A stretch of 64,000 nucleotides of DNA from Chitinophaga pinensis (GCA_945861965.1 CAMAWM010000001.1:43565-107564), one strand, 5' to 3'. Shown: positions 1 through 64,000, counted from the stretch's first letter. Translations and numbers: made by a program. The notes: generated by a model from the sequence alone, not told the origin.

Positions 1-2975
1 AGCAGAAAACTAGTAAGCTGAAACCTATTTCTTTTAATGCAGCTATTGATTTGAGAAACAATTTGAAGTATCTGCGTTATGCTGTTTTGCCTGTATTGGT
101 GTATGTTTTAATTTTAATTGTCTCGCCAAGTATGATTAGTGATAGCGGAGAAAGAATTATAAAATACAATCAAACATTTGCGGTAAATGCTCCTTTTAAT
201 TTTGAACTTAAAAATAAAATTCTTGAAGTTGATCAATTCAACGATTTTGAATTGAAAGTAAAATTATTTGGCAATGAAATTCCTGCCGATATTTTTTTAA
301 TGATAGATGGCAATGCATACAAAATGAAGAAAAATGACCTCTTGAATTTTTCATACACATTCAAAAATATTCAACACAATACTAAGTTCCAATTTTTTGC
401 AGATGAATTTTATAGCAAGGATTATTTGATTGAAGTTTTACCCAAACCATTGATGTTAAATTATCAAATTGTTTGTGATTATCCTGAATATACAGGCAAA
501 AAAGATGAAGTGCTAACTAGTCCAGGAGATGTTGTTGTACCTGCAGGAACAGCAATGAAATGGAAGTTTCTAACAAAACAAACCGAGCAGGTGATTTTGG
601 GTTTTGGAAATAAAATAGTGCAAGCCGAAAAAATTGACGATGCGAAATTTATCTTTTCTAAAAAAGTTTTTGAAAGCGAAAATTATTACATAAAAAATGT
701 AAACACAAAAGTTAAAAATAGCGATTCGATGCAATTTGTAATTTCTGTCATCGAAGACGCATATCCTGTTTTGACGGTGGATGAAAAATCGGATTCAATA
801 AGCAAAAAACAGTTTTATTTTATTGGCGATGCAAGCGATGATTATGGATTAACCAAACTTAATTTTAATTATAGATTTATTAAATCAGCAGATAAAATTA
901 AGACAGAAAAAGGAGTTCAACAAAAACAAATTTTGTTTGAAAAGCGCCAAAATCCGCAACGCTTTTATCACTACTTTAATTTGCATGAAATTAATTTACA
1001 AGAAGGAGATGAAATTGAATATTATTTTGAGTTGTGGGACAACGATGGCGTTCGTGGAGCTAAATCTATTCGATCTAAAACTTCGTTGTACAAAGCTCCA
1101 AGCATTAATGAACTAAAAGATGAAACCAATAAGAATAGTGAAATATATAAAAAAAATCTAAAAGAAACACTAAATGAAGCAAAGGAATTACAAAAGGAAT
1201 TGAAGGATCTTCAGCGAAAAATAAAGGAAAAAAATTCATTGACTTGGGAAGAGAAAAGAAAAGCAGAACAACTACTTCAGCGCGAAAAAGATTTAAATAA
1301 AAAGATGGATGAATTGCAAAAAGAGTTGAAGCTAAACAATCAAAAAGAGCAAGATTATAAGCAGCAAGAGGAAAGAATAGTTGAAAAACAAGCACAGTTA
1401 GAGAAAATGTACAAGGAAATAATGAATGATGAGATGAAGGAGTTGCTTAAGAAAATGGAAGACATGCTGAAGTTGCAAAACAAAGATTTATTGAAAAATG
1501 AAATGGAAAAACTGCAGCTTGAAAACAAAGATGTGGAGAAGGAATTGGATAGAATGTTGGAAATGTACAAGCAATTGGAACTTGAAAAAAAGCTTGAAGA
1601 CGTTAAAAACAATTTAGATAAATTATCAGAAAAACAAGAACAATTAGAAAAGAAAAATGATGACAACACTGCGAAAGAAACTGATTTGAAAACAGAGCAG
1701 GATAAGTTGAATAAAGAATTTGATGACATTAAAAAGGAGTTGAATGAAATAGAAAAACTGAATGAAAAATTAGAAGAAAAACAGGAATTGTCGGATACCA
1801 AAACGGATGAAAAGGAAATAGAGCAAGAGATGGAAAACAGCAGCAATGAACTTAGCAAAGGCAACAAGAAAAAAGCAAAACAGTCGCAAAAGAAAGCTGC
1901 AGAAAAAATGCAGCAGCTAAGCGAAAAAATGAAACAAAAAAGTTTGGAACAAGAGAAAGAGGAGCAAGAAGAAGATGTAAATGCTTTGCGAGAAATACTG
2001 GAAAATTTAGTTGAATTAAGTAAAGAGCAAGAAAATTTGATGCAGCGTTTTGGTGAGGTTAATAGCTATAGTCCGCAATTTGTTCAAATGGCACAAGAGC
2101 AAAAAAACCTAAAAGACAATGCAAAAATAATTGAAGATAGTTTGACAGCATTGAGCAAGCGTGTTGCAGAAATTAGATCATTTATAAACAAAGAAATGAC
2201 GGCAATGATTAATCACATGGATAAATCCAACAAAGGTTTTTCAGAGAGGAATATGCATCATACCAGAGTGGAACAACAAAGTGCAATGACCAATATGAAC
2301 AACCTAGCATTGATGTTGAGTGAAGCATTGAAAAAAATGCAACAGGATATGCAAAGTCAACAAAATTCGGACAAATCAGGAGATGGAAAAAGTAAAAAAA
2401 CTGGAAAAGGAAAGGGTGGAAAAAGCGGCAAGATGAGCATGAGCAAATTGAAAAAAATGCAAGAGGAAATGAATAAACAATTGCGCGAAGGGATGAATAA
2501 ACAAGAAGGAAAAGGACAAAAACAAGGTGAGAAAGGAATGGGAAGCGAATCGTTTGCACGAATGGCATCGCAACAAATGGCAATAAGACAAGCCATGCAA
2601 AAAATGTTGAGTGAGATGGGAGCAAAAGAAAAAGAAGGATTAGGTGGAAACAAACAACTTGGCGATTTGCAAAAACAAATGGAACAATCGGAAAAAGAAT
2701 TATTCAATAAAAAACTTACAACGGAAACATTGATGCGGCAACAACAAATTTTGACTCGTTTATTGGAAAGTGAAAAAGCCGAAAAAAAGCAGGAACAAGA
2801 TACAAAACGCGAAGCAGAACAAGCGCAAGAAAAAGAACGAATTGCGCCACCGCCAAATTTTGATAAATACCTGCAACAAAAAAATAAAGAAACAGAATTG
2901 TTAAGAACCGTACCTGCAGAAATGAAACCATATTTCAAACAAAAAGCAAACGAATATTTAAAAGGAATTCAATAA
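1..2975 (+). CDS. Large K/E-rich coiled-coil membrane-associated protein; 5' end lies outside the window. Possibly DUF4175-like, but this is uncertain.
   Basis: The reading frame is open from the window start; the first in-frame start shown by the ORF track is a TTG at 51. A hydrophobic segment (AVLPVLVYVLILIVS) lies near the N-terminus. A ~330-aa globular region is followed by ~500 aa of heptad-like K/E/L/Q-rich sequence, then M/Q/N-rich and G/K-rich low-complexity tracts. Confidence 0.5.
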   Translation, partial: QKTSKLKPISFNAAIDLRNNLKYLRYAVLPVLVYVLILIVSPSMISDSGERIIKYNQTFAVNAPFNFELKNKILEVDQFNDFELKVKLFGNEIPADIFLMIDGNAYKMKKNDLLNFSYTFKNIQHNTKFQFFADEFYSKDYLIEVLPKPLMLNYQIVCDYPEYTGKKDEVLTSPGDVVVPAGTAMKWKFLTKQTEQVILGFGNKIVQAEKIDDAKFIFSKKVFESENYYIKNVNTKVKNSDSMQFVISVIEDAYPVLTVDEKSDSISKKQFYFIGDASDDYGLTKLNFNYRFIKSADKIKTEKGVQQKQILFEKRQNPQRFYHYFNLHEINLQEGDEIEYYFELWDNDGVRGAKSIRSKTSLYKAPSINELKDETNKNSEIYKKNLKETLNEAKELQKELKDLQRKIKEKNSLTWEEKRKAEQLLQREKDLNKKMDELQKELKLNNQKEQDYKQQEERIVEKQAQLEKMYKEIMNDEMKELLKKMEDMLKLQNKDLLKNEMEKLQLENKDVEKELDRMLEMYKQLELEKKLEDVKNNLDKLSEKQEQLEKKNDDNTAKETDLKTEQDKLNKEFDDIKKELNEIEKLNEKLEEKQELSDTKTDEKEIEQEMENSSNELSKGNKKKAKQSQKKAAEKMQQLSEKMKQKSLEQEKEEQEEDVNALREILENLVELSKEQENLMQRFGEVNSYSPQFVQMAQEQKNLKDNAKIIEDSLTALSKRVAEIRSFINKEMTAMINHMDKSNKGFSERNMHHTRVEQQSAMTNMNNLALMLSEALKKMQQDMQSQQNSDKSGDGKSKKTGKGKGGKSGKMSMSKLKKMQEEMNKQLREGMNKQEGKGQKQGEKGMGSESFARMASQQMAIRQAMQKMLSEMGAKEKEGLGGNKQLGDLQKQMEQSEKELFNKKLTTETLMRQQQILTRLLESEKAEKKQEQDTKREAEQAQEKERIAPPPNFDKYLQQKNKETELLRTVPAEMKPYFKQKANEYLKGIQ

Positions 2976-2984
2976 TTCTAATCA

Positions 2985-3341
2985 ATGCCTAAACCAAAAA
3001 TCAATAAAACTGAGTACACTTTTTTTGATGACGTGTACGATGTTGTGCGGTTAATTCCTAATGGCAGAGTTACAAGTTATGGTGCCATTGCAAAATATTT
3101 GGGAAGTGCCCAAAGCAGTCGATTGGTTGGATATGCAATGAATGCGTCTGGTAAGGAAATGCCAGAGGTGCCAGCGCACCGAGTTGTTAATAGAAACGGT
3201 TTGTTAACGGGCAAACATTTTTTTAATAACGAAAATGAAATGCAAAGATTATTGGAATTGGAAGGTGTGAAAGTGAAAGAGGACAAAATTGCAGATTTCA
3301 AATTGCATTTTTGGGATCCAATTTTAGAACTTGATTTGTAA
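2985..3341 (+). CDS. Alkyltransferase-like (ATL) protein, MGMT/Ogt DNA-binding fold without the catalytic cysteine
   Basis: 118 aa. It carries an MGMT C-terminal-domain signature (NGRVTSYGAIAKYLG ... PAHRVVNRNG). The canonical PCHRV active-site Cys is replaced by Ala, as in ATL/YbaZ-type proteins. Confidence 0.7.
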   Translation: MPKPKINKTEYTFFDDVYDVVRLIPNGRVTSYGAIAKYLGSAQSSRLVGYAMNASGKEMPEVPAHRVVNRNGLLTGKHFFNNENEMQRLLELEGVKVKEDKIADFKLHFWDPILELDL

Positions 3342-3399: not shown

Positions 3400-5838
3400 A
3401 TGAAAATAATTTTTAACTGTCTTTTTTTAATTAGCATAAATTTATTATGTAATAATTTAGCTTTTTCTCAAGGCGAAGAGGATAGTTTGCAATTGTTGTT
3501 GCCATTCTCAAAAGACGAACAAAGGGTTGATATTTTAAATGCACTTTCTTTTTCGCAGAATGAAAACGACAGCTCAAAAAAAATTGATTATGCAAAACAG
3601 GCATTATCCATTTCAAATAAGCTCAATTATACTAAAGGATTAGCACAAGCGCACATTGCATTTGGAATAGTTGAAAATAACCGACAGCGATATAATTTAG
3701 CAAGAACAGAATTGTTGCACGGTTTGTTTTTGGCTTTAAAATCAACTGATTTGGCCACAATTGGAATAGCTTACGAACATTTAGGAAACCTTTATTTTTC
3801 TACAACTGATTACACAAAATCATTGCGCTATTATTCAGGTGCATTAAAAATTGCAGACCAAAGATTTGATATAAAAAATAGTGCTAATGTAACTTTTGAG
3901 ATAGGTGCACTTTATTTTGAATTGCAAGATTTGAATAAGGCAACAAGCTATTTTTTGCGTTCGTATAAATTATTCAAAAAATTAAAAAATGAATTAATTG
4001 CTGCAAGAATTGAAAACAAACTGGCAATTATTTATCAATCGAAAGGATACGATTTGAACGCGTTGCATCATTACATGCAATGTATAGAAGTATTTAAAAA
4101 GTTTGCAAGTTCAAGCGATATTTCATCGGTTCGAAATAATATTGCAACAATTTATTTAAAACGCGAACAGCCACAAAAAGCAGTAAAAATTCTTGCAGAA
4201 GCATATAAAATGGATGATGCTGTGAAAGATTATAAATCGGCAACAATTTCAGCAACAAATTTATCGTATGCATTTCTACAACTTCGAAAATTTGATTCTG
4301 CGATTTATTATGGTATTACGGCTTTTGAGATTGCAAAAAACAATAAATTTAAAAAGGAATATGCCTTTGCGGCATTTGCGTTAAATTCAGTTTGCAAACT
4401 AAAAGGAGACAATCAGAAGGCATTGTTTTATAAAAACGAATACGAGAAAATTAACAATGAATTGCTAGTAGAAAAAAAGTTGAATTTAGCAAAGCTTCAA
4501 GTAAAAGATGAAGCAGAAAAAAAAGCAGAGCCAATTGATTTATTGAAGAATGAAGATGCTAAATTGAACGAAATTAGTGGCAAACAAAATGCACCATTTA
4601 TACAATCAAATGGCAGTTTGTATTCTGTAATTGGATTGCTAATTGTTGTTGTTATTTCGCTGTTGTTTTTTATTTTTATTTCAAATAAAAAACGAAAAAA
4701 ACAGTTCAAGTCAGACTCAAATCAACTAGGTAGTATTAATAAATTGAATAGCGAAATTAGAACTCCGCTTAATTCGATTTTAGGTATGAGCAACTTGGCT
4801 TCACACAGTAAAAATATTCACGAGCTTCGCCAATATCTTTTAGGGATTAACCAATCGGGAGATGACTTGTTATTTGTTATAAATAATTTCAATTTGTATG
4901 TTCAAATTACAACAAAAAACGATAAATTAATTTCAACACAATTTGAATTTACAGAAAGCTTACGATTGCTTTTTAAATCCTTTGAAATGCAATGCAAACA
5001 GAAAGGAATTTTGTTCAATTCTGCACTTGCAAATGATATTCCGTTGATTGTAAATGGAGACAAAATAAAATTGCTGGCCATCATTCAAAACTTGTTAAAC
5101 AATGCATTGAAATTTTCTGAAAAAGGAGAAGTTAAAGTAGATGTAAAAACCATACAAATATCAAAAACGAAAGTTCATAAAATTCAAATAAAAGTAAGTG
5201 ATGAAGGAAAAGGAATTGATAAAAAAGTTGCAAATGAAAACAAGTTTGGAATAGGATTATTTATTGTAAAACATTTTGCCGAAAAGATGAATGGTGATTT
5301 TGAAATTAAAAATAATGAAACTGGATGTTCAGCTATTGTTAGTTTTGAGTTAAAAGCTATCACAGAAAATATTATTGATTCAATCGAAAAAAAATCAGCA
5401 GCAACTAATTCTTCATCCAAATCAATGTATCGGAAGCAAATTTTGTTGGTTGAAAGCAATCTATTAAATCAGAAAGTGTTGTTGCAGATTTTAAGAAATC
5501 ACGGATATATTGTAACAACAGCCAACAATGGAAAAGAGGCTTTGAGTTGCCTTCGACAATACAATTTTGATGTTATACTTATGGAAATTCAAACACCCAT
5601 TATGGATGGATTTGTTGCAACAAAACACATTAGAAACGATAAAGAATTTGAATGCGATAGCAATTTGCCGATTGTTGCCATGTCATCAAGTAACGACCCA
5701 TTAGAAATGCAGCGATGTTTTGAATTTGGTTTCAACGAGTATCTTATTAAACCGATAAATAAAGAAGTGCTTTTGAAAAAATTAGATGCATTGTGCACTA
5801 ATTATCAATCGTATTTATCAGAAACTAAAGGCAGATAA
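3400..5838 (+). CDS. TPR-repeat hybrid sensor histidine kinase / response regulator with atypical phospho-acceptor residues
   Basis: Signal peptide, ~380 aa of TPR-like repeats and one TM segment (LLIVVVISLLFFIFI). The HisKA-like box reads SEIRTPLNSILGM. The HATPase has an N-box (LLNNALKFS), a G1 box (DEGKG) and a G2 box (GIGLF). The C-terminal receiver reads LLVESN ... DVILMEIQTPIMDG ... YLIKP. Confidence 0.8.
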   Translation: MKIIFNCLFLISINLLCNNLAFSQGEEDSLQLLLPFSKDEQRVDILNALSFSQNENDSSKKIDYAKQALSISNKLNYTKGLAQAHIAFGIVENNRQRYNLARTELLHGLFLALKSTDLATIGIAYEHLGNLYFSTTDYTKSLRYYSGALKIADQRFDIKNSANVTFEIGALYFELQDLNKATSYFLRSYKLFKKLKNELIAARIENKLAIIYQSKGYDLNALHHYMQCIEVFKKFASSSDISSVRNNIATIYLKREQPQKAVKILAEAYKMDDAVKDYKSATISATNLSYAFLQLRKFDSAIYYGITAFEIAKNNKFKKEYAFAAFALNSVCKLKGDNQKALFYKNEYEKINNELLVEKKLNLAKLQVKDEAEKKAEPIDLLKNEDAKLNEISGKQNAPFIQSNGSLYSVIGLLIVVVISLLFFIFISNKKRKKQFKSDSNQLGSINKLNSEIRTPLNSILGMSNLASHSKNIHELRQYLLGINQSGDDLLFVINNFNLYVQITTKNDKLISTQFEFTESLRLLFKSFEMQCKQKGILFNSALANDIPLIVNGDKIKLLAIIQNLLNNALKFSEKGEVKVDVKTIQISKTKVHKIQIKVSDEGKGIDKKVANENKFGIGLFIVKHFAEKMNGDFEIKNNETGCSAIVSFELKAITENIIDSIEKKSAATNSSSKSMYRKQILLVESNLLNQKVLLQILRNHGYIVTTANNGKEALSCLRQYNFDVILMEIQTPIMDGFVATKHIRNDKEFECDSNLPIVAMSSSNDPLEMQRCFEFGFNEYLIKPINKEVLLKKLDALCTNYQSYLSETKGR

Positions 5839-16627: not shown

Positions 16628-16668
16628 AAAACCAAAAACCCGCTTCCAAATAGAAGCGGGTTTTTTTA
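16628..16668 (+). terminator. rplT rho-independent terminator; left copy of a 41-bp direct repeat
   Basis: Stem cccgcttc/gaagcggg, loop caaata, then TTTTTTT. The sequence is aaaaccaaaaacccgcttccaaaTagaagcgggttttttta. Confidence 0.8.
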
Positions 16669-16808
16669 TTTTTGTAGTTTAATTTCCAATTCAAAAAATA
16701 ATCATTTGTTTCAAATTTAATTCCTGTTTTTGCCACAAAGCTTTACCTGCAAACTTTGAAAAAATTGATAACTGCCAACGGAACAGCATGAAATAGCGTT
16801 TAACATTA

Positions 16809-18657: not shown

Positions 18658-18698
18658 AAAACCAAAAACCCGCTTCCAAACAGAAGCGGGTTTTTTTA
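18658..18698 (+). terminator. Rho-independent terminator; right copy of the 41-bp direct repeat
   Basis: aaaaccaaaaacccgcttccaaaCagaagcgggttttttta, identical to 16628-16668 at 40 of 41 positions. Confidence 0.8.
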
Positions 18699-18757
18699 TG
18701 AAATTGTATTTTTTTTTTTAAAAAACTATTTAATTGCAGAACTAATTAATAAAAATC

Positions 18758-55642: not shown

Positions 55643-55649
55643 TTTACTA

Positions 55650-55701
55650 AAAATACTTAATCAAAAAAGCAAAAGCTCTTTCTTCACTCCAATATTTTGT
55701 T
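55650..55701. repeat. Left copy of a ~55-bp direct repeat (degenerate duplicate of the 58547..59563 hydrolase 3' end)
   Basis: aaaatacttaatcaaaaaagcaaaagctctttcttcactccaatattttgtt, about 48/52 identical to 58603-58657. It begins 8 nt after the stop of the 55190..55642 ORF. Confidence 0.7.
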
Positions 55702-57047: not shown

Positions 57048-58604
57048 ATGAAAACAATAGTTTATAGAAAAATAGCAAACAAGAATTTCTTCTTATTTGT
57101 TATTTTTTTATTCAGTCTGAGTATTATTTATGCTCAATCATTCATTAAGCAAAATTATAATGGTATATCTAATGGTTTGGCTGATATAGTTGAAATAAAT
57201 GAGAACTACTATTTCGCGGGATTTAGGTTTGATAGTTCCATTTACAGTATGAATTTATTGTTTCTTAAAGTATCCCAAAAAGGCGATGTAATTAAAAATA
57301 AAGAATTTGAAGTCAAGGATTCATTATTTTATCCTAAGAAATGGCTATTCTTTAAAAATAATTTTTACTATATTGGTTATAAAATACACAGCCATTATGA
57401 CGATACTAACAATTTTGATTTGAAATTTAAACGTTGGCTTTGTTTTTATAAACTTGATACCTTTTTTAATTTAATTCATTACAATGAAATATTAATAGAT
57501 TCCGTTGTAGATAATCCTCCTTACAATGATAACTTTGGGGTTGAAGTTATTAACGATAAAATATTTGTTGTGGCATGTATTAGTAGGGTAATCCCTAAAG
57601 ACACAATTTACTCATCAAATTGGGCAAGTTTTATTTTTACTATTGAAGAATCAGAAAATATTCAACTTTTTAAAAAATATCTTAATTTTAATGATAGTAC
57701 AGAATCAAAATTTTTATCAAAAATTATTTCTGTCAAAAACCAAATATACTTATATTCAGGGGGTTATTTTTTTATAACGGATTCTACTTTCGATAAATTA
57801 TCTTATGTGCCTATGGGTGGTTTGGAATCATATCCCCAAAGTCCTTTTGATATTCCTATTACTATAAAAAAATACGCTGATGATAAGTTTTTAATTGCTG
57901 GTATTTGTTTCTGGTTTCCTAATCCAGGTATCCCGGTTGGAGGCGACCAATATACTTTGTCGATTGCATACGTTGATAGTTCGGCACATTTTATAAATAA
58001 GAATATTATTAATCCAAATGGCATCAGAGACTTTAAACCTTATGATAATAGTGAAAGCCCATTGTCACTTATTGATTATTATGATAAAAACAATATTTAC
58101 GTTTCAATGAGTAATACTAACAATCAATTGTATGTGGTAAATCTTGATTCTAATTTTACTAAAAAATGGGAACGATTAATACCAATTTCAAATTTTGACA
58201 ATGCCGTATGTATTAAATTGTATAATACTGTAGCCACAAGTGATGGAGGGGTTTTAATACTTACAGTAATATTTAAAAAAATAAATAATGTAACCAAGGC
58301 ATCACATTATGTTTTAAAATTTGATAATAAAGGCAAAAGTAGTTTCCTTAAAGAAATTATTCATGCAAAGGATGTATTTCAGATTTATCCTAACCCATTT
58401 AGTAAGAAATTACTTTTAAAAAACGAAACGAATTCACTATGTATAATTCATATTTTTAATATGATGGGTAAAGAGGTATATACTATTATTGTAAATGATT
58501 CAGAGGGCTTTATTGATACCTCATATTTAAGCGAAGGTTTATATTTTTACGAAATTAAGAATAACAATGGACTCATAACTAAAGGGAAATTAATAAAAGA
58601 ATAA
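57048..58604 (+). CDS. T9SS cargo protein of unknown function with a Por_Secre_tail C-terminal domain
   Basis: Signal peptide; the C-terminal ~80 aa read QIYPNPFSKKLLLKNETNSLCIIHIFNMMGKEVYTI ... LSEGLYFYEIKNNNGLITKGKLIKE. Confidence 0.65.
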   Translation: MKTIVYRKIANKNFFLFVIFLFSLSIIYAQSFIKQNYNGISNGLADIVEINENYYFAGFRFDSSIYSMNLLFLKVSQKGDVIKNKEFEVKDSLFYPKKWLFFKNNFYYIGYKIHSHYDDTNNFDLKFKRWLCFYKLDTFFNLIHYNEILIDSVVDNPPYNDNFGVEVINDKIFVVACISRVIPKDTIYSSNWASFIFTIEESENIQLFKKYLNFNDSTESKFLSKIISVKNQIYLYSGGYFFITDSTFDKLSYVPMGGLESYPQSPFDIPITIKKYADDKFLIAGICFWFPNPGIPVGGDQYTLSIAYVDSSAHFINKNIINPNGIRDFKPYDNSESPLSLIDYYDKNNIYVSMSNTNNQLYVVNLDSNFTKKWERLIPISNFDNAVCIKLYNTVATSDGGVLILTVIFKKINNVTKASHYVLKFDNKGKSSFLKEIIHAKDVFQIYPNPFSKKLLLKNETNSLCIIHIFNMMGKEVYTIIVNDSEGFIDTSYLSEGLYFYEIKNNNGLITKGKLIKE

Positions 58605-59563
58605 AAGTACTTACTCAAAAAAGCAAAAGCTCTTTCTTCGCTCCAATAATTTTTGTTGGGAAAACTTTTTGAAAATCCAACATGCCCACCTTGTTGAGTT
58701 GCTTCTAAATAAAAATATTCAGATTTTTTTGCGATTTCAAAAGGAAAACATTCTTCAGAAAGAAAAGGATCATTTAAAGCATTTACCAGCAAAGTTGGAA
58801 TTTTAATTTGATGTAAAAATTGTTTGCTGCTGCATTTTTGGTAATAATCAGTCGAATCGATAAATCCGTGAATTGGTGCTGTAAAGCGAGAATCCCAATC
58901 TGCAAAAGTTTTTATTTTTTCAATTCCTTCAGTATTTAATTTTTCGGAAAATAGTTTCGCTTTTTTTAGAATTTTTTTGTTCATGCTTTTTAAAAAGCGG
59001 TGCATATAAATTTTGTTTGAACCTTTAGCCAATGCTTTTGAACTTGCTGCCAAATCAACAGGAACTGAGAATGTAGCTGCGGATTTTATTTTTAAATTAA
59101 TGTTTACTGACTCCTCGCCCAAATATTTTAAAAGTGCATTTCCACCCAGACTAAAGCCACACAAAAAAATAGATTCATACAAATTGTCGGAAGAAATTTG
59201 ATTGATAACTTCTGAAATATCATCGCTCGCACCGCTGTGGTAGCTTCTTAGTTTTAAATTCATTTCGCCACTGCAGCCTCTAAAGTTTACTACACATACA
59301 TCAAAATTCCGCTCGCTGAAATATTTCGAAAACCCTTTGATATACTGAGATTGCGAACTTCCTTCCAATCCATGAAAAAGAATCAATAAATTTTTTGAGG
59401 AATTTGTAATCCAATCCAAATCTAAAAAATCGCCATCAGCTAATAATATTCGTTTGCGTTTGAAATGAATAGAAACATATCGAAATAAAGTTGGAAGTAT
59501 TGTTTCTACATGTTTGTTTTTAAAAAAACGATTGCCTTTAAAATTGGATTGTAGAATTGGCAT
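58547..59563 (-). CDS. Alpha/beta-fold hydrolase (YheT/ABHD-like)
   Basis: HGLEGSS ... GFSLGGNALLKYL (GxSxG) ... GGHVGF. The last ~15 codons may be read-through into the repeat. Confidence 0.7.
   Translation of the reverse strand: MPILQSNFKGNRFFKNKHVETILPTLFRYVSIHFKRKRILLADGDFLDLDWITNSSKNLLILFHGLEGSSQSQYIKGFSKYFSERNFDVCVVNFRGCSGEMNLKLRSYHSGASDDISEVINQISSDNLYESIFLCGFSLGGNALLKYLGEESVNINLKIKSAATFSVPVDLAASSKALAKGSNKIYMHRFLKSMNKKILKKAKLFSEKLNTEGIEKIKTFADWDSRFTAPIHGFIDSTDYYQKCSSKQFLHQIKIPTLLVNALNDPFLSEECFPFEIAKKSEYFYLEATQQGGHVGFSKSFPNKNYWSEERAFAFLSKYFYSFINFPLVMSPLLFLIS
58603..58657. repeat. Right copy of the ~55-bp direct repeat (authentic 3' end of the hydrolase gene)
   Basis: aaaagtacttactcaaaaaagcaaaagctctttcttcgctccaataatttttgtt. 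On the minus strand it encodes ...NKNYWSEERAFAFLS of the hydrolase. Confidence 0.7.
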
Positions 59564-59580: not shown

Positions 59581-60510
59581 TTAGGAATTCGTTTCGGTAA
59601 GATTGAAATGCACTAATTTTTTAAAAACTTCAATTCGTTGGCTTAATACATTTTCATTCAAATCCACTAATCGTTCGGTCCCAAATTTCTCGACACAAAA
59701 ACTAGCCATAGCCGAGCCATAAATTACTGCATTTTTCATGTTTTCAAAACTTATGTCATCGGTTTTGGCTAAGTAGCCAATAAAGCCACCAGCAAATGTA
59801 TCGCCTGCACCGGTTGGATCAAATACTTCTTCGAGTGGCAATGCCGGAGCAAAGAAAACTTCCTTGCCATGAAACAGAAGTGCACCGTTTTCGCCCTTTT
59901 TTATGATTAAATATTTAGGGCCCATTTCCTGAATTTTAACTGCTGCTTTTACCAATGAGTATTCGCCCGAAAGTTGTCGAGCTTCTTCGTCATTAATTGT
60001 CAAAACATCAACCATCGAAAGTGTTTTTTTCAAATCATCCATGGCTATTTCCATCCAAAAATTCATCGTATCCATTACAATCAATTTTGGACGAGTTGTC
60101 AATCGTTCAATCACGGTTTGCTGTACTTTTGGTGTCAAATTCCCAAGCATTAAATACTGACAGTTTTGATACGAATCGGGAATTATAGGATCAAAATCAC
60201 CCAGTACATTTAATTCAGTAATTAACGTATCGCGGCTATTCATATCGGTATGGTATTTTCCGCTCCAGAAAAAAGATTTTTCGCCTTTTTTTATTTGCAA
60301 TCCTTCTGTATCTACTCCATGATTGTTTAAATGCGAGATAAATTCATGCGGAAAATCATCTCCGACAACGCCAACCAAGTTTACATTTTTGGTAAAGTAT
60401 GAAGCGCAAAGAGAAATGTAAGATGCTGCTCCACCAACGATCTTGTCTGTTTTTCCAAAGGGAGTTTCAATGGCATCAAATGCAACACTACCGACAACTA
60501 ATAGACTCAT
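59581..60510 (-). CDS. PfkB-family carbohydrate/nucleoside kinase
   Basis: PfkB signature DPTGAGDTFAGGFIGYLA. The likely start is MSLLVVGSVAFD at 60510; the tracked ORF extends to 60549. Confidence 0.8.
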   Translation of the reverse strand: MSLLVVGSVAFDAIETPFGKTDKIVGGAASYISLCASYFTKNVNLVGVVGDDFPHEFISHLNNHGVDTEGLQIKKGEKSFFWSGKYHTDMNSRDTLITELNVLGDFDPIIPDSYQNCQYLMLGNLTPKVQQTVIERLTTRPKLIVMDTMNFWMEIAMDDLKKTLSMVDVLTINDEEARQLSGEYSLVKAAVKIQEMGPKYLIIKKGENGALLFHGKEVFFAPALPLEEVFDPTGAGDTFAGGFIGYLAKTDDISFENMKNAVIYGSAMASFCVEKFGTERLVDLNENVLSQRIEVFKKLVHFNLTETNS

Positions 60511-60592
60511 AAATATTTTTTTAAATTTTTTTTGCCGCGAATATTGCATAATAAATCTGCAAAACCTATCATTGCAGCCCCATTAACAAAAT

Positions 60593-60666
60593 TCCTTGGT
60601 AGCTCAGCTGGTTAGAGCACATGACTGTTAATCATGGGGTCGCTGGTTCGAGCCCAGCCCAGGGAG
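60593..60666 (+). tRNA. tRNA-Asn (anticodon GTT)
   Basis: 74-nt cloverleaf: acceptor stem tccttgg/ccaggga, D-arm gctc-agctggtta-gagc, anticodon arm catga-ctGTTaa-tcatg, 5-nt variable loop, T-arm gctgg-ttcgagc-ccagc. CCA is not encoded. Confidence 0.85.
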
Positions 60667-60670
60667 CAAA

Positions 60671-60705
60671 AAGCCAATCGTAAATTACGGTTGGCTTTTT
60701 TATTT
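60671..60705 (+). terminator. Rho-independent terminator after tRNA-Asn
   Basis: Stem agccaatcg/cggttggct with one G-U pair, loop taaatta, followed by ttttttattttg. Confidence 0.65.
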
Positions 60706-60728
60706 TGTTTCAAGCATATTTTGCATTT

Positions 60729-60756
60729 GTAGAGACGATGCATGCAACGTCTCTAC
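60729..60756. repeat. REP-like perfect palindrome
   Basis: gtagagacg-atgcatgcaa-cgtctctac: 9-bp perfect stem and 10-nt loop. Confidence 0.7.
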
Positions 60757-60778
60757 AGGGAATCATTTCATCATTATT

Positions 60779-61007
60779 TCAAACATAATAGTCATCTTCT
60801 TTCCAATTTACAGGATTATTTATGATATAATTTCTGATGTTTTCAAATGACCGAGCATCGCGAATGATGTGGTCGTAAAATCGGGGTTGCCATTCAAAAT
60901 CAGGGTTTATTTTTCGGCATTCTTTGCTGACTGCTGATTTGAATGACCTGATAATAACTGATAGTGAATATGCCTTTGGGCTAATATTCTGAAAATGCTA
61001 ATTTTAT
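60779..61007 (-). pseudogene. N-terminally truncated RAYT / IS200-like (HUH Y1) transposase remnant
   Basis: The minus-strand frame opens directly after an in-frame stop with no initiator and reads HFQNISPKAYSLSVIIRSFKSAVSKECRKINPDFEWQPRFYDHIIRDARSFENIRNYIINNPVNWKEDDYYV*. This matches the Y1 transposase C-terminus (SFKS..., WQ.RFYDH.IRDE..., YI.NNPV.W). The N-terminal HUH motif is missing. Confidence 0.7.
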
Positions 61008-61016
61008 TCGAATTAT

Positions 61017-61043
61017 GTAGAGACATTACATGCAACGTCAGAG
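61017..61043. repeat. Second, degenerate copy of the REP-like element
   Basis: gtagagacattacatgcaacgtcagag shares gtagagac..catgcaacgtc with the 60729 copy. Confidence 0.55.
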
Positions 61044-61121
61044 TGTGAAAAAACTATTCACAAACAGGATGTAAACATGAGGATAAAAGTAGAAAAAACA
61101 AAGCAAATAAGATTGTTCATT

Positions 61122-61373
61122 TGAGTATTCAAAACACATGGAATACATCACACCAATTTAATGGGACTAAAAAAAGTAAATGGAGAGTTTGCCTTAATCA
61201 TGATGGTTTATAACATGAAACGCTGCATGAATATTTTAGGAATGGATGATTTGATAGAAAAAATAAAAAACTGGGTACCCAATTACAAAGGGACAACTCC
61301 TATTTTTAATAAATCGACCTTTATAAAAGCCATTACAGCACACTTTTTTCGCCAACAAAAATTAGCAGCTTAA
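61122..61373 (+). pseudogene. C-terminal fragment of an IS5/IS1182-family DDE transposase
   Basis: ...GLKKVNGEFALIMMVYNMKRCMNILGMDDLIEKIK... resembles the conserved C-terminal helix (E..L...AYNLKR..N) of IS4/IS5/IS1182 transposases. No upstream DDE domain is found in any frame. Confidence 0.5.
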
Positions 61374-61489
61374 AAATCAAGTATCGTATAATCGAAGCAA
61401 ATCGAACAATACCCTATGCTATAAAATAATTTGTACCCTTTTTTTATGAAAAACTGAGTTTTTTCACAGCCTGACGCCTCTAATATAAA

Positions 61490-64000
61490 TTACATATTCC
61501 GTCTGTACTGTCCACCAACCTCAAACAATGCATTTGTTATTTGTCCAAGCGAACAATATTTTACGGTTTCCATTAATTCGGCAAAAATATTTTTGTTGTG
61601 AATGGCTGTTTGTTGTAATTTTAAAAGCATTTCTGCTCCTTTTTCTGTGTTGCCTTTTTTCAATTCATTCAACATTTCAATCTGATATTCTTTTTCATCG
61701 GCCGTACTTCTAATAATTTCTTTGGGCAAAACAGTGGGCGAACCCTTGCTGCTTAAAAAAGCATTGACACCAATAATCGGAAATTCGCCCGAGTGTTTTA
61801 GCGTTTCGTAATAAATGCTTTCCTCTTGTATTTTATTGCGTTGGTACATGGTTTCCATTGCGCCCAAAACGCCACCTCGTTCGCTTATTTTATCAAACTC
61901 AGTCAACACAGCTTCTTCAACCAAGTTGGTCAATTCTTCAATAATAAACGAACCTTGTAAAGGGTTTTCATTTTTTGCCAATCCCAATTCGCGGTTTATA
62001 ATTAACTGAATAGCCATTGCTCTTCGCACACTTTCTTCGGTTGGCGTTGTGATGGCTTCATCGTAGGCATTTGTATGAAGTGAGTTGCAGTTGTCGTAAA
62101 TGGCGTACAATGCTTGTAGCGTTGTACGAATATCGTTGAAATCAATTTCCTGAGCATGCAAACTTCGTCCGCTGGTTTGAATATGGTATTTCAGCATTTG
62201 ACTTCTTTCGTTTGCAGCGTATTTCAGTTTCATGGCTTTTGCCCAAATTTTTCGAGCTACACGCCCAATCACTGAATATTCGGGGTCTATTCCGTTTGAG
62301 AAAAAGAAAGAAAGATTGGGAGCAAAATCATCAATGTGCATTCCACGACTTAAGTAATACTCAACAAAAGTAAAACCGTTAGAAAGCGTAAGCGCTAACT
62401 GCGTAACGGGATTTGCTCCGGCTTCGGCAATGTGATATCCGCTAATGGAAACCGAATAAAAATTTCGTACGGCTTGGTCAATAAAATATTGTTGCACATC
62501 GCCCATCAAACGCAAACTGAATTCGGTTGAAAAAATGCAAGTGTTTTGTGCTTGATCTTCTTTCAAAATATCTGCTTGAACAGTCCCTCGAACTTGACTC
62601 AAAGTTTCGGTTTTTATTTTCTCGTACACGTCTTTTGGCAAAACCATTTCGCCCGAAATGCCAAGCAACATCAATCCAAGACCGTCATTTCCTTCTGGTA
62701 ATTCTTCGTTGTATTTTGGTCGTTTTGTGCCTTTCGTTTTAAAAATTTCTTCTGTCTTTTTATTGACCTCATTTTCCAAATTATTTTGTTTGATATACAA
62801 TTCGCATTGTTGATCAATAGCAGCATTCATAAAAAATGCACAAATAATTGCAGCAGGTCCGTTAATGGTCATCGAAACTGAGGTTTTTGGATCAGCCAAA
62901 TTAAAGCCTGAATACAATTTTTTTGCGGCCTCAAGACTCCAAACACTTACACCCGAATTGCCAATTTTGCCATAAATATCGGGCCTGTGATCGGGGTCGT
63001 TACCATACAGAGTAACCGAATCAAAAGCAGTAGATAATCTTTTGGCGGGCATTCCTATGCTAACATAATGAAAGCGTTTGTTGGTGCGTTCAGGTCCGCC
63101 TTCACCGGCAAACATTCTGGTTGGATCTTCGCCCTCTCTTTTAAACGGATAAATTCCGGCAGTGTAAGGAAAATCGCCAGGCGAATTTTCTTGCAACATC
63201 CAACTAAGCAAATCGCCCCAACCTTTAAATTTGGGTAATACAACTTTTGGGATACGCTGTTGCGACAGACTAGTAGAAAAAGTTTTTAGCGAAAGCACTT
63301 TGTTTCTAACTTTGAATTTATATTCATCATCGCTGAATAGTTTTTTCTTTGCATTCCAATCTTCTAAAAGTTTTTTGTTTTTTGGATCGAGTTCTAATTT
63401 TATGCTTTCGTATTCGGCAATCAATACTTTTATTGCATTCTTTTTTTCATCGTCTTTAACATTTTTCAGAATTTTTTCAAACTGTTCGGCAGCGGCAATG
63501 CTCATATCCAATTGTGTATCCGAAAGAGTTTGTATGGAGTAAAAAAGCGAATACATTTTATCGGCTACTTTGCTTTGATGGATGGCCCAATTGTCGTAGC
63601 CACGATTGTTTTCCGAAATTTCAGAAAGGTAACGTGTGCGATGAGGAGGAATGATGTAAATTTTTTCGCTCATCTCTTCACTTATGGCATAGTTTGATTT
63701 TAAATCGGCATCGGTTATTTCAACTATTTTATCCATCACGGCTTTGTACAAACTGTTCATTCCTGGATCGTTGAATTGAGATGCAATCGTGCCATAAACT
63801 GGCATTTGATTGCTGTCTATGTCAAACATTTTATGATTGCGTTGGTATTGTTTTTTTACATCTCGCAAAGCATCAAGAGCGCCTTTTTTGTCAAATTTGT
63901 TGATAGCAATAATGTTTGCAAAATCCAACATGTCAATTTTTTCAAGTTGTGTTGCGGCTCCGTATTCTGGTGTCATTACATACAAAGCCACATCGCTGTG
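61490..64000 (-). CDS. icmF: Fused isobutyryl-CoA mutase (IcmF-like: MeaB-type G-domain plus B12-dependent acyl-CoA mutase substrate domain); 5' end lies outside the window
   Basis: The N-terminal part inside the window carries the MeaB/ArgK G4-region ([31 protein letters not shown]). It continues into a methylmalonyl-CoA-mutase-type TIM-barrel domain ([20 protein letters not shown] ... [22 protein letters not shown]). The ORF remains open at the window edge. Confidence 0.8.

Follow-up and report, generated by a model that had tools for sequence, protein, structure and literature searches.

REP-associated tyrosine transposases (RAYTs, or TnpA-REP enzymes; REP, repetitive extragenic palindrome) bind the REP hairpin in single-stranded DNA, reading a GTAG tetranucleotide at its foot; the strand is cut and rejoined by means of a metal-binding HuH motif and a catalytic tyrosine. 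The described systems closest to the locus considered here are the TnpA-Y1 enzymes of subclass 2.4, equivalent to RAYT group 4 of Bertels; these have a median length of 194 aa, carry the motifs NH[IFV]H, WQ and YIxNNP, and are hosted mainly by Cyanobacteria and Bacteroidetes (Quentin, Siguier, Chandler and Fichant 2018, PMC6006769). Their REPs are long and of the double-foot type, with GT[AG]G at the 5' end and C[TC]AC at the 3' end; unique to this subclass are REPs placed within the gene itself, between the HuH and Tyr motifs and usually in frame (PMC6006769). The 16-mers flanking group 4 genes occur about 14 times per replicon (Bertels et al. 2017, PMC5581495). In a stretch of 64,000 nt from Chitinophaga pinensis (GCA_945861965.1 CAMAWM010000001.1:43565-107564; called the window throughout, with positions counted from its first letter), the interval between a tRNA-Asn gene and a mutase gene very probably holds the wreck of such a transposase unit, or REPtron, of the subclass 2.4 / group 4 type, its missing part replaced by the stub of an insertion sequence (IS). 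Each of its parts is of a described kind, namely a TnpA-REP of subclass 2.4 that carries a double-foot REP within its gene, and a deletion derivative of an IS1182 element (Table 1).

The transposase survives as a minus-strand segment (60782-60997) with the translation HFQNISPKAYSLSVIIRSFKSAVSKECRKINPDFEWQPRFYDHIIRDARSFENIRNYIINNPVNWKEDDYYV, followed by a TGA stop codon (60779-60781). It retains the motifs WQPRFYDH (EWQPRFYDHIIRD, with the WQ pair) and NYIINNP; its identity ranges over 48-71% against 23 database proteins and over 47-67% against the products of 79 loci found in a metagenome scan. The Pfam profile Y1_Tnp matches it over positions 59-121 of 121 (E=5.6e-4, 20.5 bits; cut-off 23), and the NCBIfam profile REP_Tyr_transpos over positions 68-132 of 146 (E=2.9e-10, 40.2 bits; cut-off 80). 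By these motifs and by the type of its REPs, the fragment is assigned to the C-terminal (Tyr-motif) half of a TnpA-Y1 subclass 2.4 / RAYT group 4 protein. The original prediction had described it as a 76-codon piece of a Y1 transposase with the HuH N-terminus missing; the family and the missing N-terminus are borne out, and the count of sense codons is corrected to 72. Neither the HuH motif NH[IFV]H nor an N-terminal half is present at the locus or elsewhere in the window, the best tblastn hit of three N-terminal halves having E=0.088 at an unrelated place; no ATG, GTG or TTG start occurs in the 60782-60997 frame, and no open reading frame (ORF) is called there. Lacking both a start codon and the HuH metal site, and with stops upstream, the fragment can neither be made nor act; it is functionless.

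Among solved structures the sole real match is the E. coli TnpA-REP (YafM; 4ER8), over residues 93-122, with W94, Q95, H101, R104 and Y115 conserved and the tyrosine of the NYIINNP motif aligned to Y115; this similarity is weak (E=0.0016 over 30 residues). The E. coli system resembles the present one in being a HuH/Y1 enzyme, in its GTAG-guided REP binding and in having cognate REPs on either side of the gene; it differs in belonging to subclass 2.2, with DHLH, WE and YIHYNP motifs, and in that its REPs are single-foot, bulged and not within the gene. The likeness to subclass 2.4 extends to the WQ and YIINNP motifs, the double-foot REP, a REP that probably lay within the gene and the Bacteroidota-type host; the difference is one of preservation, since the window has only the 72 C-terminal codons, lacks a HuH half and a start, and shows stops in the linker and a REP reduced to one arm, as a pseudogene.

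Past the stop codon of the fragment stands an intact hairpin, REP1 (GTAGAGACGATGCATGCAACGTCTCTAC), which begins with GT[AG]G and ends with C[TC]AC, as double-foot REPs do. The palindrome with a perfect 9-bp stem that the original prediction had reported is its outer stem (60729-60756); over 60728-60757 the arms extend to 15+15 nt with one mismatch, and as single-stranded DNA the hairpin folds at -10.1 kcal/mol (z -5.2), a stability reached by none of 200 shuffles. The pattern GTAGAGACNNNNCATGCAACGTC has two sites in the window, REP1 and the partial copy REP2 treated below, and none in 100 shuffles; the 8-mer GTAGAGAC does not occur in the window outside these two sites. As it stands, REP1 could be a candidate substrate for a transposase acting in trans, or a putative passive RNA or DNA structure below the tRNA terminator.

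The same palindrome recurs well beyond the window. The pattern GTAGAGAC-N5-ATGC-N3-GTCTCTAC was scanned exactly across one genome per species (596 Gb), where its 20 fixed bases are expected by chance in an estimated 0.5 matches or so; at least 120 genome stretches, spread over about nine phyla, contain it, all with identical foot and GCATGC centre (GTAGAGAC-N12-GTCTCTAC, 28 nt). Hosts among the matches listed include Cyanobacteria, Bacteroidota, Ignavibacteriales, Chloroflexota, Acidobacteriota, several proteobacterial classes, Deinococcales, Patescibacteria and Phycisphaerales. Among these same matches, 104 of the 128 copies are perfect 28-nt palindromes, and the inner stem occurs in at least 15 variants that keep its pairing (for example GTTG/CAAC, AAGG/CCTT, GTAG/CTAC, GGTG/CACC and GCAG/CTGC); REP1 is 1 nt off the commonest of them (GTTGCATGCAAC core), its own core sequence being found in none of the 128. 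Searched with a hidden Markov model of 61 full-length relatives, 14 of the 128 listed copies have a RAYT-like frame within 600 nt, and 83 have none despite at least 600 nt of sequence on both sides; several contigs with the palindrome come from one assembly. A literature search for the literal GTAGAGAC palindrome returned nothing relevant. Across the genomes scanned it forms a true REP family of wide dispersal, with a conservation across phyla that is unusually strong for a REP; its fixed foot and centre and covarying inner stems make the 28-nt double-foot REP a useful handle for subclass 2.4 REPtrons and their REPs in metagenomes. It resembles the GTAG-tagged REP superfamily in being a short GTAG-tagged stem-loop, with intragenic insertions and RAYT association reported for that superfamily (PMC3733652). 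In the survey of that superfamily the GTAG type is reported from Proteobacteria, Cyanobacteria, Chloroflexi and the PVC group (Planctomycetes, Verrucomicrobia, Chlamydiae), while Bacteroidetes have CGTC repeats (Di Nocera, De Gregorio and Rocco 2013, PMC3733652); here the GTAG...CTAC double-foot type is found in a Bacteroidota-like genome.

The second copy of the palindrome that the original prediction had noted beyond the fragment is real as to its likeness, with 21 of 24 nt of 61016-61039 matching REP1; it consists, however, of a left arm only and is probably intragenic rather than flanking. This REP2 lacks a right arm and, by fold computation, cannot fold; from 61034 onward the sequence is that of the IS left inverted repeat. 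About 30 nt separate the REP2 foot from the first conserved residues of the C-terminal half, inside the range of 19-120 nt seen for the intragenic REPs of relatives, and on this spacing REP2 is best read as the intragenic REP, observed with its HuH side missing and its inner part overlapping the IS end.

The architecture of intact units is seen in relatives (contigs are denoted L001 and so on). Of the 79 metagenome loci, 71 have a HuH half upstream of the C-terminal half, and 61 of these 71 have a single open frame that reads through the REP, encoding peptides such as VETLHATSL or GRDAMHGVST. About 50 of the 79 have a 28-nt GTAG...CTAC hairpin beginning 47-150 nt before the C-terminal half. 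In the relatives L015, L014 and L010 the palindrome stands between PNH[IVF]H and the C-terminal half. In L015, from a metagenome-assembled genome of Melioribacteraceae, the order is ...LPNHIHGIIILNDTG, GTAGAGACGTTGTATGCAACGTCTCTAC, C-terminal half, with a second palindrome 4 nt past the stop codon; in L050 three identical REPs alternate with the two halves, as REP - N-half - REP - C-half - REP. Only one of the roughly 72 assessable relatives (L215) consists of a C-terminal half alone with an upstream REP, from which it follows that the state found in the window is one of decay and not a recurrent mobile unit. The HuH motif is absent because the gene is truncated, making this a remnant rather than a functional member of the family. 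The lead that many homologues consist of the C-terminal half only was followed and rejected: in the DNA inspected (L015, L014, L010) and across the 71 loci an N-terminal half lies upstream, and the short ORFs mostly reflect contig ends or splits made by gene callers at the intragenic REP.

Two of the relatives have features of their own. L010:1890-2880 (GCA_900089805.1, FLOH01000054.1) contains a RAYT gene of subclass 2.4 that is frameshifted yet has its intragenic REP in frame; about 250 nt upstream of it stands a putative transfer-messenger RNA (ssrA) gene, so read from its GGGGCGACCGGTTTCGACGGG start. L162:1929-3183 lies about 500 nt downstream of a tRNA-Asn gene, and its N-terminal half contains several REP-coded peptide repeats (TDVAMQ...) besides the one normally found between HuH and Tyr.

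The second wreck, which starts inside REP2 and stops 11 nt short of the stop codon of the IcmF-like mutase gene, occupies the place expected for the right arm of REP2 and a HuH half of about 270-300 nt. Its transposase tail matches NCBIfam transpos_IS1182 over positions 455-487 of 488 (E=5e-4, 19 bits) and Pfam DDE_Tnp_1_6 (E=0.0046), and is 79% identical to that of a full IS1182-family element. This element, reached via homologues of the tail ORF, lies in L001 at about 1551-3318 (about 1.77 kb); window 61033-61154 corresponds to L001 1550-1671 (92%) and window 61149-61476 to L001 2989-3316 (90%), the stub having lost about 1317 bp, nearly all of the 437-aa ORF1, at a junction with short imperfect microhomology. 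ORF1 of L001 contains the domains DUF772, DDE_Tnp_1 and DDE_Tnp_1_6 and scores 311.9 bits with transpos_IS1182 (cut-off 270), as against 54 bits with the IS5 profile (cut-off 140). Of the IS5/IS1182 transposase tail of the original prediction the IS1182 alternative thus stands and the IS5 one falls, and what had been taken for only the last 80 or so residues, although correctly located at 61122-61373, is part of an internally deleted element with both inverted repeats. Profile searches for the Y1_Tnp and DDE families, proposed there as a check, matched both, and together with the relatives they support the decayed REP/RAYT locus that had been suspected.

The two ends of the stub are complementary at 18 of 20 nt (90%; 61036-61055 and 61457-61476). 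The 22-nt left repeat AACGTCAGNNTGTGAAAAAACY is common to four independent left ends (window, L001, L137 and L138), and the right ends share ...GTTTTTTCACAGCCTGACGKT, save for the window copy, whose last two bases are CC. In its 22-nt terminal inverted repeats, its two preserved ends and its want of a transposase the stub resembles miniature inverted-repeat transposable elements (MITEs); it differs in being the single copy in the window, unmultiplied as far as seen, with a deletion junction that is unique among the derivatives seen, and further in the last 2 nt of its right repeat, which deviate from the consensus, and in the lack of a visible target duplication. The derivatives in L137 (about 937 bp) and L138 (about 488 bp) and the in-frame fusion P0025, which joins residues 1-33 to the last 108 or so, have other junctions; a single MITE family with a shared deletion junction was considered and is rejected on these differences, the derivatives being independent decay events. 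The window contains no second IS copy, and the stub is a non-autonomous derivative of an IS1182 element, without transposase.

Two observations concern the parent element itself. Sequence outside both inverted repeats is conserved between copies in different contexts: the right repeat is followed by TTCGGGCTTKGCG (L001:3319-3393, L137:~1784-1800, L138:~3978-4054), and CATNNC precedes the left repeat (5-20 nt to its left in each). Either the IS extends beyond the termini given here, or it strongly prefers certain targets. In the full-length copies of L001-L008 the transposase is split into ORFs of 437 and 70 aa, and P0025, P0027 and P0031 indicate a frameshift near ...RKRQEWNEHIFGTIKRKWG in L001 (L001:2900-3010); even the 'full' copy may be defective.

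The order in which the two wrecks came about can be reconstructed conditionally. Between tRNA-Asn and the mutase gene, the minus strand would originally have carried a gene for a HuH/Tyr single-strand-DNA transposase of about 190 aa, with one double-foot REP (GTAG...CTAC) just past its stop codon, preserved as REP1, and another in the variable loop between HuH and Tyr, preserved as REP2. An IS would have entered in or beside the intragenic REP; one deletion at the IS end would then have taken the right arm of REP2 and the HuH half, to within 11 nt of the mutase stop codon, and a separate internal deletion would have gutted the IS. In one version the IS inserted into the centre of the REP and a later deletion at its right end removed the rest, in keeping with the two aberrant bases that close the right repeat and with the missing TTCGGGCTTKGCG; in another, the IS was located close to the mutase gene, and its left end became joined to REP2 by a deletion at the CAACGTC that both share.

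Alternatively, the HuH half may have been lost before the IS arrived, or independently of it, through recombination of an upstream flanking REP with the intragenic one or through excision catalysed by the RAYT, the IS later entering the resulting hybrid REP. Substrates for such a loss exist, L050, L130, L187, L170 and L191 having identical REP copies in the order REP - N-half - REP - C-half - REP; the joined IS flanks, TGTAGAGACATTACATGCAACG(C)CTCTAAT, have a weak likeness to a full REP, and the far end of the IS is merely 11 nt from the neighbouring gene, as if only a REP had stood there. The hybrid REP reconstructed in this way, however, does not fold (-0.6 kcal/mol, z +0.3), the match of its right flank, between 5/8 and 7/10, is not significant, and no target duplication is present; the route is also uncommon, L215 being its single instance among the assessable relatives. 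We consider this course unlikely and, given the failure of the reconstructed REP to fold and the weak match of its right flank, favour one or other of the two versions in which the IS entered first and a deletion at its end removed the HuH half.

Several observations weigh against an IS-broken subclass 2.4 REPtron in general. Both profile scores of the fragment are below the cut-offs for full-length proteins, as expected of half a protein, the full-length relatives themselves reaching only 49-57 bits with REP_Tyr_transpos; the HuH motif, which defines the family, is missing, and half a protein carries the assignment. None of the 79 metagenome loci exceeds 67% identity, and the scan yielded no ancestral or empty site. 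The window has no dispersed REP copy, an absence that is uninformative in 64 kb at the low copy number quoted above for 16-mers flanking group 4 genes. At the junction, the first bases of the IS left repeat, AACGTC, coincide with the six that come next in the REP, which makes the boundary between REP2 and IS ambiguous; the three deviations of REP2 from REP1 are bases conserved outside the left repeat of the IS elsewhere; 61025-61039 can thus be ascribed to either, leaving the 9-nt foot TGTAGAGAC as the only part that is unambiguously REP. On the other side, the right flank (CCTCTAAT) matches the expected REP end weakly (5/8). Finally, the window copy has no visible target-site duplication; the copies of L001, L137 and L138 have no flanking direct repeat either, and the missing duplication would be expected if one end was deleted later, or if this member of the family generates no duplication.

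The ambiguity at the junction lends itself to a reading in which REP2 is not a REP at all and arises from chance together with sequence of the IS left end, the RAYT having been truncated by IS insertion and deletion in the linker. The last 6 nt of the REP2 match (AACGTC) are indeed the start of the inverted repeat in all four IS copies, and CATNNC, found 5-10 nt outside the repeat in L001, L137 and L138, equals the deviations of REP2 from REP1. The 9-mer TGTAGAGAC, however, occurs twice in 64 kb, both times at the RAYT locus, is not found in the left flanks of the other IS copies, and stands where relatives have their intragenic REP, its chance of falling in that stretch of about 100 nt being an estimated 1e-3; the reading is improbable. 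The same overlap admits a more specific idea. IS1397 and ISKpn1 target enterobacterial REPs, and an element of the IS1182 lineage might likewise target the double-foot REP hairpin, since its left repeat begins with AACGTC, the inner-arm bases of the REP, and abuts the centre of the intragenic one. On this analogy, which we rate as very improbable, the hairpin recognised by a HuH transposase would serve as the homing site of an unrelated DDE insertion sequence, whose arrival inactivates the transposase gene. That REP - C-half - REP forms a composite unit, moved in trans by an intact RAYT rather than decayed in place, is scarcely credible: the fragment does have REP sequence on both sides and many database homologues are short ORFs of the C-terminal half only (66-126 aa), but these are mostly the gene-caller or contig-end splits described above, with N-terminal halves upstream in the DNA, the window has no second copy of such a unit, and the nearest homologue of the C-terminal half is only 71% identical.

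With the IS-broken REPtron as the reading retained, the locus is due an annotation as a RAYT (TnpA-REP subclass 2.4) pseudogene, two REPs of which one is intact and the other halved, and the remnant of an IS1182 element that is non-autonomous. No part of it should be annotated as a gene, and the importance of the locus beyond annotation is small; it shows cleanly how a domesticated REP transposase gene can die, broken at the hairpin in its own coding sequence.

Table 1. Features of the locus and its neighbours (window positions).
Feature	Position	Strand	Remarks
tRNA-Asn (GTT)	60593..60667	+	left neighbour of the remnant; ARAGORN; Rfam tRNA 66.3 bits
Intrinsic-terminator-like hairpin, 15 pairs and T-run	60668..60710	+	DNA fold -12.7 kcal/mol, z -5.9
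REP1, intact double-foot REP hairpin, T-GTAGAGACGATGCATGCAACGTCTCTAC-A	60728..60757		21 nt past the stop codon of the RAYT
Pseudogene fragment, C-terminal (Tyr-motif) half of subclass 2.4 TnpA-REP / RAYT	60779..60997	-	72 codons and TGA
Decayed linker, intragenic REP to C-terminal half	60998..61015	-	three stops in the frame of the C-terminal half (*FE*N*HFQN...)
REP2, left arm only: foot TGTAGAGAC and inner bases of the intragenic REP	61016..61033		likeness to REP1 up to 61039
IS1182-family internal-deletion derivative, 445 bp	61034..61478	+	parent about 1.77 kb; both 22-nt inverted repeats
Left inverted repeat of the IS	61034-61055		
Open frame, last 80 or so residues of IS1182 transposase	61122..61373	+	called ORF 61161-61373, 70 aa
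Residual transposase start ATG	61139	+	reads MEYITPI*
Deletion junction of the IS	~61149-61154		
Right inverted repeat of the IS	61457-61478		
3' part of fused B12-binding/MeaB/methylmalonyl-CoA-mutase (IcmF-like) gene	61490..64000	-	right neighbour; extends past the window edge

The tRNA-Asn gene and the terminator behind it, both named in the original prediction, are confirmed by ARAGORN and Rfam and by the fold of a hairpin with a T-run; an Rfam scan of 60300-61700 gives nothing except the tRNA. The window has a GC content of 33% and encodes proteins with tails of the type IX secretion system (T9SS), and is on these grounds Bacteroidota-like. The arrangement is reproduced at 99.7-100% identity in the independent metagenome contigs L009 and L222, which rules out an assembly artefact. 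A further contig, L221 (ENA ERZ27280294 k141_884023), equals window 60662-64000 at 99.94%, the terminator hairpin remaining with this right-hand segment; the IcmF-like product, of 1147 aa in L221, combines PF02310, PF03308 and PF01642. The left 1334 nt of L221 are unrelated to the window and contain a T9SS gene with Laminin_G_3 and Por_Secre_tail domains (lectin-like) and no tRNA, and three further contigs of the same organism stop within tRNA-Asn; together these point to a structural variant with its breakpoint at the tRNA 3' end, and the variant looks as if it breaks exactly there. An integrase at the breakpoint of L221 was considered and rejected, the adjoining gene being the one for the lectin-like T9SS protein. 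A tRNA-adjacent hotspot, which had also been proposed, is not a general property of these genes, although this one variant does break at a tRNA; 3 tRNA genes in the 279.5 kb around the 79 relatives show no enrichment over a background estimated at about 1 per 90 kb.

Elsewhere in the window, a 56-nt repeat with 91% identity is found at 55648-55701 and 58602-58657, at the 3' end of a T9SS gene with a Por_Secre_tail (57048-58604) and near the end of its neighbour on the opposite strand. Two 42-nt terminator-like hairpins (AAAAACCCGCTTCCAAAYAGAAGCGGGTTTTT) at 16628-16669 and 18658-18699, in DNA with otherwise dissimilar flanks, are 97.6% identical and 2030 nt apart.

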